A DNA stretch of 34,233 nt. Origin: Candidatus Nanohaloarchaea archaeon (lineage in GTDB: Archaea > Nanohalarchaeota > Nanosalinia > Nanosalinales > Nanosalinaceae). Below, one piece after another: positions 1 through 3,000 of the stretch. The position numbers are program-made. The stretch spans positions 1 to 34,233 of the forward strand of contig JAWOFP010000042.1 in NCBI GenBank assembly GCA_046497485.1, read 5' to 3'. Within the stretch, counting starts at the first letter, position 1. Each line of letters opens with the position of its first letter.

Positions 1-3000
1 CTGCGGTAGACCCATCTCTTTGTAAGCCAGGAAACAAACTGCTACAACCAGAGAAGACGCGATGAAAGCCTGTAAGTCTTTAACAGTTGGATGCAGAGGC
101 GACCTCATAACCTTAATTGATGGAAGCTGCCTTTTAGCTTTTCAGGTAAACATCTCAACAATATTATCCGAAAAGTTGTATTCTCCTGAGATCCTGGAGA
201 CCTGTGGGAAGTCATCGAACTCATCGATATGGATCCCTTTCTGACCTGCAGAATAACGCCTCCAGACTTCTTCCCATGGAACCATGTAAGCCTTTCTAGG
301 CCTTCCACGACCCCTCCTCAACTCAACTGCTAGATAGCCTTTACGGCCAGAACGGTTTACGAAATCCGTGATTCGCTCAACTTGATGGCCGTTGTCGCTG
401 ACTGAGAAATGCTGGGAAAAGTAGAGCTTGTTAGTGCTTGAGGCCTTCACCGACTTGTTCTCAATCGCCAAGTAGAAAGTTTCATGAGGTGAATCCACCA
501 GTACATCGCATAGCTGGCTGGAAAACCGGTGCTGCTTCTTTCTATGTGCTATTCCTTCAATCTCTTCATCCTGGAAAAACTGGTTGAATGAATTTACTAA
601 GGCCCTTTCAAAATCAGTCATAATTACAGTATAACATCCTGCAGTAATAAAATTTAGAAACTTCCAAGGCCTTTCTGCTCCGGACGCTTCAAGACTTTTC
701 CAGAAGTCATCGCCATCGCGACTCTTCCATTTGAGATTATCTGGCCTTTCACACACTGAATCTCGCCTTCTAAAAGGCCTGAACGAGTAAACTCTCCCTC
801 AATCAAAGGATAATCGGTCAATTCCTGTACATCAATTACTTCAGCGTGCCGGTCCTTACCCTTCATAATCTCCGATAAATTTTCCTCAGGTCTGCTAAGC
901 TTGTTCTCTTTCCTGATTCTCTGACTGATATTATCAGTTGTTAACTGATCCTCAATATCAAGAGCTTCATTGGATGTCAGGCCTGATTCGATCTCCGCTG
1001 CGTAATCTGATCCCTGCTCTACCCAGCGCTTCGGAATATTCTCTGATCGAGTAACTCCCACCTTGAACTTATCGCCGATCTGAGCGTAGTAGACTGAGAA
1101 CTCTCCTTCTAATGTGTTTTGTGCGCCTCTAACATAATCGGAGTAAATATCTTTTCCCCGACATTCTGGACATTGAGAACCTGAATCTATCTCCCTAAAT
1201 TCTGGGCAGATAGTTCTTTCACCCGGCGAATGAGCATAACCAGTACATCTCCTTTCATTTTTTAGTTCATAAGAAATACTTCTACCTTGTTGAAGGCCTC
1301 GTTTCTCAAAACCGTTTTTCGTCGCGAGTAACAGGTTAGCCTTCCAGCGTTGATTGCTTCGGCTCCACTGGACTTTGACTATCGATTTCATCTTTTCTTT
1401 CCTCTAAACCTTTTTGATGTGCGGCACCCACAACCACTAGAATATCTTTCCCAGGATTTTCGTCCGCTACTTTCTCTAAGGCCTTGAACATGTAAATATC
1501 TCTCTCCTCTAAGACGGCTTGATAGATTTCTGGGAAACTTTCAGCAAACTTTTCCTTCATACCTTCCAGCATTTCTCCTTCCGGAATCTCGGTATAATCA
1601 AACTTGGTTCCAAAGATAGAAAGTGGAAGCATCATTAAGGCCTTAACTTTCTCCTTTCTCCTCACTGCATTTAGCCGGCCCATAGTCTCTCGAATATCTC
1701 TATCAATTAGATAAATTTCTTTCTCCGTTTTACTGGCTCTATTGTATGCGTGAAGCATCTCCTCACCAGGCATAACACCAGTCTTGCTTCCGATATATTT
1801 CTGAAACTTTGCTAGAAGAGAATAAGCCAAGTTATCAGGACTGTCTCTCTCTCCTGTAATCAAGGCATTCAACCGGCCCATATCAAGTTCAAGACAAACA
1901 ACATCAGGATCAAACTCTTCAAAGGCCTGATCAATTCTTTCTATGCTTTTCTGAGAAACATGCGAAGTCCCGATTATCTTAATCAATATTCTTCAATCCC
2001 CTTTTTCTATGAGTAAAAATAGTGAGGCCTTTCTCCCGCGGTCGGGAGAGTCTCCAGGCTGAGCATCTCCGAAGCTACCTCAGATCCGCCACCCCTCGAA
2101 CATGCCACAGACCGCTTAAGGCTGCTCCCGTCAAGGCCTGACCTGATTCACAACCTGCGACATCCCGAGGGACGGATCATCAACAGTAGCTTCAAAGCCT
2201 CTTCCCTGAAAGCTCAACCTTCCACGGAATAACTAGGGATTCCCTGCTTACGAGGATTACAGGGCAACAGCCGACCTCGAACCGGCCAATCCAACAAGGC
2301 CTCAAAAAGAAATTAAGCTGGAAATGTTAAAAGAAGGAAGGCCTTAGAATCTGGAATTAATTAACCATAGTATTCAATAATAATTTCTCCGCTTCCAGGA
2401 CTTGATCCTCCAGTAACCGTTTGACCTGAAGGTTCTAACGAAGCTATCCCTAATTCTTGGCCTGCGTTCTCACCATCTATTTCACTTGAAGTCGAATTTC
2501 CCCCCCATCCTCCAAATCCTGTACCGTCTCCAGAATCCCCATTTGCACCAACGCCACCTAAACCCCCAGGACCTCCACGAGCACCACCACCGCCTCCATA
2601 TCTTTTATTTCCATAATCCCAATTAGCACCTCCTCCAGCATCTGCTGCAGCAACTAGCTCTCCAGTATCATTTATAACTATCTCTGTAGATCCACCACCG
2701 CCTCCACTATCATCATATGTTGCTCCCCCACTAAATCTACCAAACCCCGAATCTGAGCCAGTAGGGGTTTCTCCCACCCATATACTCAATTGAGAGTTAG
2801 TTGATACATCTGCTTTTGCATTAGTAATATAGCCACCAGATCCGCCTACACCCGGATTATTATCGCTAGTAGAATCAGCTCCATCTGCGCCGTGCATTTC
2901 AACAATTCTGATCTCCTCTACTTCATTGGAGAAGCCATTATTTAGATCAACCTGATAACCATCACTTCCAGCAGTAGACTCATTAACCTGAACATCTCCT

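Follow-up and report, generated by a model that had tools for sequence, protein, structure and literature searches.

The canonical archaeal signal recognition particle (SRP), as in M. jannaschii, A. fulgidus, S. solfataricus and H. volcanii, consists of 7S RNA (RF01857), SRP19 and SRP54. In established SRP structures, SRP19 binds primarily to the helix 6 tetraloop, and a clamp formed by SRP19 and helix 6 pre-organises helix 8 in eukaryotes and in archaea other than those described below. The same three-component particle is described in reviews; in the sections of PMC2905702 cited here, SRP19 is assigned to all archaeal subgroups and always coexists with helix 6, helix 6 with its GNAR tetraloop is described for all archaeal SRP RNAs, and the adenosine clamp between helices 6 and 8 is considered probable in every one of them. 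Table 2 of that review contains no DPANN lineage. Two departures from the standard form are described. SRP19 is dispensable in Haloferax volcanii, where an archaeal SRP works in a deletion mutant (Yurist, Dahan and Eichler 2007), and archaeal SRP54 needs no SRP19 to bind 7S RNA; both points are taken from passages of PMC6098224 and PMC2905702. The SRP RNA of Thermoproteus is permuted and circularised, and the relevant part of PMC4731332 describes it as keeping helix 6, the GNAR loop and SRP19. Our literature search found no publication describing an archaeal SRP that lacks both helix 6 and SRP19.

Outside the Archaea, the closest counterpart is the large bacterial SRP RNA (RF01854, the Bacillus subtilis scRNA type, with Ffh), which has a terminal helix, an Alu domain, helix 5 and helix 8 in about 265 nt and is devoid of helix 6 and SRP19. 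In Bacillus, the Alu-domain protein is HBsu.

The window analyzed here is a stretch of 34,233 nt from the genome of a Candidatus Nanohaloarchaea archaeon (contig JAWOFP010000042.1). The minus strand at 2023-2304 was assigned by cmscan to RF01857 Archaea_SRP with 105 bits (E 2e-24), above the gathering threshold of 96.5, and its 282 nt spanned the model end to end (1-317 of 317). Within the SRP clan (CL00003) the best-scoring family was RF01857 and not RF01854, two weaker clan matches were dropped, and no second SRP RNA match was present in the genome. Helix 1, a helix of 9 bp, closes the 5' and 3' ends of the RNA in the cmscan alignment, the consensus fold and the minimum-free-energy (MFE) fold, and the Alu domain with helices 2-4 and the UGUNR motif is retained, as is helix 5 with the GUCC of the 5e motif. 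The features of the gene are collected in Table 1.

Table 1. Features of the SRP RNA gene and its immediate flanks, in window coordinates.
Feature	Position	Strand	Basis
SRP (7S) RNA gene, full length, without helix 6	2023..2304	-	cmscan and MFE fold
Helix 1, 5' strand UGAGGCCUU, pairs with 2023-2031	2296..2304	-	cmscan, MFE fold, consensus of 28 relatives (columns 8-12 with 289-293)
Helix 1, 3' strand AAGGCCUCA	2023..2031	-	cmscan, MFE fold
Alu domain: helices 2, 3 and 4	2232..2293 (boundaries approximate)	-	alignment to model positions 10-64
UGUNR motif (UGUUG) in the Alu domain	about 2264-2268	-	cmscan alignment
Helix 5e/5f, 5' strand GAUCCGUCCCUCGGGAUGUCGCAG, including the conserved 5e-motif GUCC	2155..2178	-	cmscan, consensus fold, MFE fold
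Helix 5f/5e, 3' strand	2083..2111	-	cmscan, consensus fold, MFE fold
Expected branch site of helix 6: 1 nt for 38 model positions, helix 5 running straight into helix 8	2152..2156	-	cmscan, consensus fold, RNA-library contig
Helix 8 GUGAAUCAGGUCAGGCCUUGACGGGAGCAGCCUUAAGCGG, apical loop UGAC instead of GGAA	2112..2151	-	cmscan, consensus fold, MFE fold
Putative TATA-box-like element TTTTAACA, starting and ending 21-28 nt upstream of the 5' end	2325..2332	-	by eye, sequence only
Run of five T directly past the RNA 3' end, likely archaeal terminator	2015..2019	-	predicted, sequence only

The initial annotation had described helix 6 as replaced by a single nucleotide, and this was borne out by the cmscan alignment, in which the hairpin block of 38 model positions is represented by 1 nt immediately before ...UUG-UGAAUCAGGUCAGGCCUUGACGGGAGCAGCC of helix 8. 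The arm with its GNAR tetraloop, 38-41 nt long where it occurs, is missing. Because helix 6 is absent, the RNA has neither the three-way junction nor the helix 6-helix 8 adenosine clamp of the canonical archaeal particle. For the relatives only lengths had been available before, and the alignment at base level agrees with them. The corresponding model block (here 40 positions) holds 0-3 nt in all ten relatives, from five families, for which the cmscan alignment was displayed, and the helix 6 columns of a MAFFT alignment of S domains hold 1 nt in 43/43 nanohaloarchaeal loci versus 39-41 nt in four euryarchaeal references. SRP RNA matches were obtained in 60 of the 70 nanohaloarchaeal genomes, this one included, and all were 260-283 nt long over model positions 1-317; the ten genomes with no match are all 71-89% complete.

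The consensus of 28 nanohaloarchaeal RNAs folds into one rod in which helix 5 is continuous with helix 8, with no hairpin at the helix 6 site. Compensatory changes were found in 52 of its 73 pairs. Several of the pairs formed between columns 157-166 and 201-211 show 11-16 double changes each, and Alu helices 2-4 carry compensatory changes in columns 14-17/68-71, 18-24/30-36 and 42-45/62-67. The MFE fold of the 2023-2304 RNA alone (-128.5 kcal/mol) is likewise one rod, with helix 1 at its closed end. The helix 8 segments AGGUCAGGCC...GGGAGCAGCC are conserved in 28/28 RNAs and form the putative SRP54 site, the loops of helix 8 being where the SRP54 M domain binds in established SRP structures. 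In place of the canonical GGAA, the apical loop of helix 8 reads UGAC, UGGC or UGAU in 28/28 nanohaloarchaeal RNAs. Since UGAC was also found in a helix-6-bearing RNA of Methanomassiliicoccales, this loop is not tied to the loss of helix 6.

The locus might instead be an artefact, whether through pseudogene formation, faulty assembly, or transfer or contamination bringing in an SRP RNA of bacterial type, but nothing speaks for this beyond a helix set that resembles the bacterial one. Such an origin is hardly credible, as the best family is archaeal and matched over its full length, the genome has one SRP RNA match, strong covariation maintains the fold, and the same helix-6-less form recurs in over 150 genomes, some of them closed. 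The proteins of this contig are also acidic, like those in the rest of this halophile genome. The neighboring genes (TraB/PrgY family, DUF2797, RHH, a metallo-beta-lactamase fold and a phage-type integrase) showed no functional link to SRP.

SRP19 was likewise reported missing from this genome and its relatives by the initial annotation, and the extended searches agreed. PF01922 gave no match in the present genome, a 66-contig assembly that is not closed and is 97.35% complete, and no match above the cut-off in any of 70 nanohaloarchaeal genomes (0/41 in a smaller set), eight closed ones among them. The genomes differ in this respect from those of canonical archaea. PF01922 matched three of four archaeal controls and missed Sulfolobus, a weakness already pointed out and seen again here, whereas a purpose-built, broader SRP19 profile of 35 rows (A2) detected SRP19 of S. 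solfataricus (1.1e-11), M. jannaschii (1.5e-32) and human (3e-17) in the PDB and recovered SRP19 in 5/5 genomes outside its building set. With A2, none of 63 nanohaloarchaeal genomes was found to encode SRP19. Two A2 matches in nanohaloarchaea (E 0.07 and 0.14) were discarded as noise, one lying within a 523-aa frame and the other being full of stop codons. An HMM of 43 sequences was run with --max against all 15,299 six-frame segments of at least 30 aa of this genome and reached a best E of only 0.58; a motif scan of the genome gave a sole match, within a 606-aa ATPase-like frame, which was rejected. A protein homologue search from three Thermoplasmatota SRP19s yielded little beyond Poseidoniales relatives and did not widen the diversity. 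No recognizable SRP19 is encoded in this genome, and the gene itself is probably absent, although sequence alone cannot prove the absence of a small, fast-evolving protein.

A highly divergent SRP19 could still be encoded and act on the RNA in another way, e.g. through the helix 8 loop alone, so that only helix 6 would have been lost. The Sulfolobus control missed by PF01922 speaks for such a protein, and so do a phylum with intact helix 6 and the genome G195, both SRP19-negative with the same profile, which may mean that SRP19 is undetectable in fast-evolving small genomes. We nevertheless consider this quite improbable, since A2 works across the distance from archaea to human and in Sulfolobus, the unfiltered search of all frames was negative as described, no relative was positive with either profile, and the helix 6 tetraloop to which SRP19 primarily binds no longer exists here.

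The phylum in question is a small-genome one with canonical helix 6 in 46/46 SRP RNAs of 292-331 nt (G234 and G255 show the GGAG loop), and A2 found SRP19 in none of its 52 genomes. One weak A2 match, in G375 (E 0.0044, 99-aa frame), was taken as spurious, being antisense to a 240-aa frame that resembles a membrane protein. G195 also keeps helix 6. Either SRP19 diverges beyond the reach of A2 in these organisms or its loss precedes that of helix 6. Because one phylum keeps helix 6 with no detectable SRP19, SRP19 may be lost, or diverge past recognition, before helix 6 disappears. The co-loss proposed in the initial annotation stands in that both parts are missing here, but the two steps may have been sequential.

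The trait had also been presented as that of one lineage, which holds for the Nanohaloarchaeota but is not peculiar to them. Short SRP RNAs of 263-278 nt account for 109/114 RNAs of the Woese-/Pacearchaeota phylum, and PF01922 detected SRP19 in 0/121 of its genomes. Weak PF01922 matches in this phylum (E 0.03-0.08; a frame of 205-207 aa; G186, G139 and G113) were rejected; the one that was opened (L215) reads by eye as ribosomal protein uS7 and was taken as false. Across a sample of 80 archaeal genomes, helix 6 was missing from 34 of 79 SRP RNAs, and all 34 of these genomes lacked a PF01922 match; conversely, all 42 PF01922-positive genomes had SRP RNAs of 306-384 nt, 39 of them scored by RNA length and three from alignments. 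The genomes compared are related, so these counts do not represent independent events. The Haloferax control has both helix 6 and SRP19, unlike Nanohaloarchaea and other DPANN groups. Because 14 of 139 genomes with a match have an SRP RNA score below the Rfam gathering threshold, annotation pipelines may miss these short RNAs, which lie near or below that threshold. A separate DNA pattern scan was too loose and gave mostly chance bacterial matches. The state is inherited rather than a private loss, and it is common to all sampled Nanohaloarchaeota and most sampled small-genome (DPANN-type) archaea.

The initial annotation had called this form intermediate between archaeal and bacterial SRPs, an apt description, since it has the same helix set as large bacterial SRP RNAs of the Bacillus type. 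The 2023-2304 RNA shares with RF01854 the Alu domain, helix 5 and helix 8 and the lack of helix 6, which is an architectural likeness and not membership of that family. The nanohaloarchaeal lengths are close to the bacterial one, and the spacing from GUCC to helix 8 is 27-33 nt in both the bacterial and the helix-6-less archaeal RNAs. The RNA differs from the bacterial type in its archaeal sequence, with RF01857 as the top family, and in its host, an archaeon with archaeal SRP54 and FtsY.

This likeness bears on whether the form without helix 6 and SRP19 is the ancestral, Bacillus-like state of Archaea, helix 6 and SRP19 having arisen later in other Archaea. The S domain is colinear with that of bacterial SRP RNAs, the pattern for a helix-6-less archaeal S domain mostly matched bacterial SRP RNA genes among the matches listed, the three bacterial matches that were checked score as RF01854 Bacteria_large_SRP with the same helix set, and the form occurs in several phylum-level groups of Archaea. 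Against this, at least one small-genome phylum has canonical helix 6, three genomes of the Woese-/Pacearchaeota phylum carry a non-canonical insert of 35-49 nt precisely where helix 6 would sit, resembling a remnant of the arm, and SRP19 is common to other Archaea and eukaryotes. Polarity moreover requires a rooted, named tree. We regard an ancestral state as unlikely, and similarly doubtful is its fuller form, in which a primitive archaeal SRP was inherited from the Bacillus-type SRP of the common ancestor and kept by most DPANN, with helix 6 and SRP19 invented once in the stem of other Archaea and eukaryotes.

The protein partners of the RNA are present, in agreement with the initial annotation. 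SRP54 is a protein of 428 aa comprising N, G and M domains; FtsY, a second SRP54-type GTPase, occupies a 295-aa frame, and both are encoded on contig C15. These proteins, helix 1, the Alu domain, helix 5 with the 5e GUCC and the helix 8 loops are common to this genome and the canonical archaeal SRP. As to expression, the part of PMC10266531 cited here reports very high levels of the SRP RNA in a cultured nanohaloarchaeon. A 194-nt contig from one salt-lake metatranscriptome run spans 2015-2174 with three differences and no insertion at the helix 6 site, its flanks being uncovered; it is a weak hint of SRP RNA expression, as such contigs show neither expression level nor RNA ends. This RNA-library contig fits from 2015 on, i.e. 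from the position of the T run.

We consider it very probable that 2023-2304 encodes the functional SRP RNA of this nanohaloarchaeon, with an S domain formed as one rod. Since helix 6 is gone and no SRP19 gene was found, the particle would consist of SRP54 and the 282-nt RNA, the composition previously proposed for an RNA that keeps the Alu domain and helices 5 and 8, which the alignments, the covariation and the SRP19 searches support. Helix 5 passes into helix 8 with no three-way junction, helix 1 and the complete Alu domain being retained. In the proposed mechanism, by analogy with bacterial Ffh on 4.5S and 6S RNA, the M domain of SRP54 would bind the conserved loops of helix 8 directly, and the clamp of SRP19 and helix 6 would be dispensable here. 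Given the FtsY receptor, targeting would proceed as usual.

The nanohaloarchaeal particle would parallel in nature the SRP19 deletion of H. volcanii and would indicate that a minimal archaeal S domain of helix 5 and helix 8 is sufficient in the wild. The H. volcanii mutant was made in the laboratory and keeps helix 6, whereas the nanohaloarchaeal loss is natural and old and has removed the RNA arm as well. The Thermoproteus gene also departs from the standard archaeal one, but the nanohaloarchaeal gene is colinear, with just the arm missing. Both parts are absent from a large share of archaeal diversity, namely all sampled Nanohaloarchaeota, almost all of the sampled Woese-/Pacearchaeota phylum and several further small-genome archaeal groups, and the phylum that keeps helix 6 while SRP19-negative suggests a testable order of events. 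Where Nanohaloarchaea belong is still under debate and, according to the part of the preprint cited here, is at present argued from rare insertions (bioRxiv 10.64898/2026.06.17.729505). An RNA arm of 40 nt together with one gene is a discrete and easily scored character that Nanohaloarchaea share with other DPANN groups, although convergent loss through genome reduction may lie behind the sharing. If the primitive-SRP reading were true, it would offer a structural character for setting the archaeal root beside or within DPANN.

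The helix 6 hairpin of the window's signal recognition particle (SRP) RNA, which occupies 38 model positions, was aligned by cmscan as one nucleotide, as the initial annotation had claimed. The match to the archaeal SRP RNA family of Rfam (RF01857) scored 105 bits (gathering threshold, 96.5; E = 2e-24), with 282 nt spanning model positions 1-317, and this archaeal family remained the top-scoring one. Helix 1, helices 2-4 bearing a UGUUG (UGUNR) motif, the GUCC-containing helix 5 and helix 8 (…AGGUCAGGCCUUGACGGGAGCAGCC…) were all aligned. Folded as a single sequence, the RNA formed one long rod, with a 9-bp helix 1 closing its end. 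A putative promoter element and a T run were recognized by eye in the flanking sequence (see table). The SRP RNA gene has a phage-type integrase gene 3 kb away and genes for RHH (CopG) and TraB/PrgY family proteins nearby; these neighbors may represent an integrated element beside a small-RNA gene.

Features of the SRP RNA locus and duplicated SRP RNA genes (window positions unless a genome is named)
Feature	Position	Strand	Remark
SRP RNA gene	2023-2304	-	
TATA-like TTTTAACA	21-28 nt upstream of SRP RNA		putative, by eye
Run of five T	directly after SRP RNA 3' end		by eye
Helix 8 apical loop	2128-2136		columns 180-189 of RNA alignment A3
TraB/PrgY family protein	1336-1986	-	
RHH (CopG) protein	3651-3872	+	
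Phage-type integrase	5253-6506	+	
SRP RNA copies, genome G016	C3:80236-80500 and 82955-83229		
SRP RNA copies, genome G055	C7:407761-408040 and 423716-423996		

The host genome (G000; 967,558 bases, 66 contigs, 97.35% complete, 41.5% GC) is that of a nanohaloarchaeon. Its proteome is strongly acidic (median pI 4.6 for 581 frames of at least 200 aa), and its SRP54, a 428-aa protein with domains N, G and M, is 70-86% identical to proteins in Nanohaloarchaea records. Within the collection of genomes, its phylum, class and order coincide. The genes for SRP54 and FtsY are both on contig C15, 2.3 kb apart. A nanohaloarchaeal-like SRP54 (72% identity) was also present in a record titled Colwellia polaris MAG (L050), and a 273-nt SRP RNA of the DPANN type, with 1 nt in the helix 6 columns, in one titled uncultured Methanosarcinales archaeon (L478); mis-binning or mislabelling is the probable source of both titles.

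The relatives, previously judged by RNA length only, were compared base by base. Alignment to the model left 0-3 nt in the helix 6 [40] block in 10/10 relatives from five families, and MAFFT alignment of S domains showed 1 nt in the helix 6 columns at all 43 nanohaloarchaeal loci versus 39-41 nt in four euryarchaeal references. SRP RNA was matched in 60 of 70 nanohaloarchaeal genomes, always as 260-283 nt over model positions 1-317, and the ten genomes lacking a match were 71-89% complete. The RNAalifold consensus of 28 nanohaloarchaeal RNAs contained 73 pairs, 52 of them backed by compensatory changes; in helix 5, the 5' strand (columns 138-166) was paired continuously with columns 201-234, straight into helix 8, and several junction pairs carried 11-16 double changes. 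The alignments, RNA lengths and covariation together indicate that loss of the helix 6 arm is a conserved, selected architecture rather than decay. Two SRP RNA copies were found on one contig, 2.5-16 kb apart, in two nanohaloarchaeal genomes, and copies of identical score on two contigs (C8 and C9) in genome G254. The helix 8 apical loop was UGAC, UGGC or UGAU in 28/28 nanohaloarchaeal RNAs; the typical archaeal loop is given as GGAA. UGAC was also found in a Methanomassiliicoccales RNA that has helix 6, indicating that the loop change is not tied to helix 6 loss.

The Pfam model PF01922 detected no SRP19 in G000, in a set of 41 genomes or in a nanohaloarchaeal set of 70 that included eight closed genomes. 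Because this search missed the Sulfolobus control, which left room for a divergent SRP19, profiles were built from SRP19 frames of 43 diverse archaeal genomes. The 35-row profile A2 recovered SRP19 in 5/5 genomes outside its build set, scoring higher there than Pfam, and detected the PDB proteins of M. jannaschii (1.5e-32), human (3e-17), S. solfataricus (1.1e-11), A. fulgidus and P. furiosus, but gave no credible match in 63 nanohaloarchaeal genomes. A 43-sequence HMM, run without filters on all 15,299 six-frame segments of at least 30 aa in G000, reached a best E of 0.58. The sole match of a loop-1 motif scan of G000 was an ATPase-like frame and was rejected. A negative sequence search alone is not proof of absence; for G000, the missing SRP19 binding site is the stronger argument. 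In two Thermoplasmatota genomes (L182 and L183), the SRP19 gene adjoins a small conserved gene whose product starts M..IKRL(V/I)LDVLKPH, and in L183 it is also preceded by a frame resembling, by eye, ribosomal protein S8e.

The trait had been viewed as lineage-specific, which the wider survey contradicts. Pacearchaeota and Woesearchaeota records held short SRP RNAs (263-264 nt) with 0-4 nt in the helix 6 block. In their phylum, SRP RNA was matched in 114/121 sampled genomes, 109 of the 114 as full-model matches of 263-278 nt, and PF01922 exceeded its cut-off in 0/121. The remaining five comprised two fragments and three RNAs of 309-320 nt (L222, L223 and L224 in G109, G082 and G154) with an insert of 35-49 nt placed exactly where helix 6 belongs, without a GNAR loop and folding differently in each; these inserts may be what is left of helix 6 or what replaced it. 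A fourth RNA of this length with sequence beyond the short form was seen in G244 (L408). Among 80 genomes drawn across Archaea (G195-G274), PF01922 was found in 42, whose SRP RNAs were all 306-384 nt (helix 6 followed base by base in three, judged by length in the rest). In 34 of the 38 PF01922-negative genomes, the helix 6 columns are down to 7-9 nt, three others (G195, G234 and G255) carry a canonical, GGAG-looped helix 6 and one gave no SRP RNA match; as the genomes are related, these counts describe distribution and not independent events. Euryarchaeal RNAs measured 304-325 nt (DHVE2, Methanobrevibacter, Aciduliprofundum, Methanomassiliicoccales, Thermoplasmata and Poseidoniales), with helix 6 present in all six records with printed alignments and SRP19 in three of three such genomes tested. 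The SRP lacking helix 6 and SRP19 is a natural, ancient and widely inherited archaeal variant, not a lineage oddity. Many helix-6-less RNAs fall below the RF01857 threshold (for example, 58-94 bits in G027, G034, G036, G040, G045, G063, G098 and G198), and in genomes of this kind the SRP RNA may escape standard annotation.

The proposed co-loss meets an important exception in the phylum around G255 and G234 (genomes of 0.8-2.2 Mb). There, SRP RNA was longer (292-331 nt) in 46/46 genomes with a match (52 sampled), a canonical helix 6 is kept, its GGAG loop being visible in G234 and G255, and neither PF01922 nor A2 found a real SRP19 in the 52 genomes. The lone A2 match (E = 0.004) ran antisense to a frame resembling a membrane protein and was discarded. 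G195 (1.4 Mb, 100% complete) likewise combines a canonical helix 6 with no detectable SRP19. In this phylum, either SRP19 has diverged beyond A2 or its loss left helix 6 in place. The latter fits the report, in a passage of PMC2905702, that the archaeal S domain is compacted by a helix 6 adenosine and not by SRP19. Under either reading, the co-loss may have been a sequence of events.

The loss of helix 6 removes the three-way junction, the tetraloop-tetraloop clamp and the primary SRP19 site from the RNA; SRP54 would bind helix 8 directly, and the SRP54-RNA particle would work with FtsY as usual. The remaining RNA parts are those used by bacterial Ffh, and the Bacillus-type large SRP RNA (RF01854) has the same helix set as the window RNA. 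Our pattern for an archaeal S domain lacking helix 6 (GUCC followed, after 27-33 nt, by helix 8) found, among the matches listed, mostly bacterial SRP RNA genes, three of which were checked and assigned to RF01854 (193-250 bits). The predicted direct SRP54 binding and FtsY function are supported by the viable SRP19 deletion of H. volcanii and by SRP19-independent SRP54 binding in archaea (both as cited in passages of PMC6098224 and PMC2905702), together with very high SRP RNA expression in a cultured nanohaloarchaeon (PMC10266531, in excerpt). The excerpt lists FtsY, Ffh and SRP RNA, with SRP19 missing from that list without comment. A weak hint comes from one metatranscriptome contig that spans the helix 5/helix 8 junction with no insertion.

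The initial observation is confirmed and its interpretation supported. No description of an archaeal SRP RNA lacking helix 6, or of a natural lack of SRP19, was found by full-text searches, which covered one paper with both SRP19 and DPANN terms (PMC7203096) short of its SRP19 passages; the missing SRP19 may be visible in supplementary tables of gene presence from DPANN studies. A 2010 review tabulates the features of archaeal SRPs and includes no DPANN group. The variant revises the textbook description of the archaeal SRP, defines a minimal S domain for archaea and supplies a discrete character bearing on DPANN evolution and on the placement of Nanohaloarchaea, which is debated (bioRxiv 10.64898/2026.06.17.729505, in excerpt).
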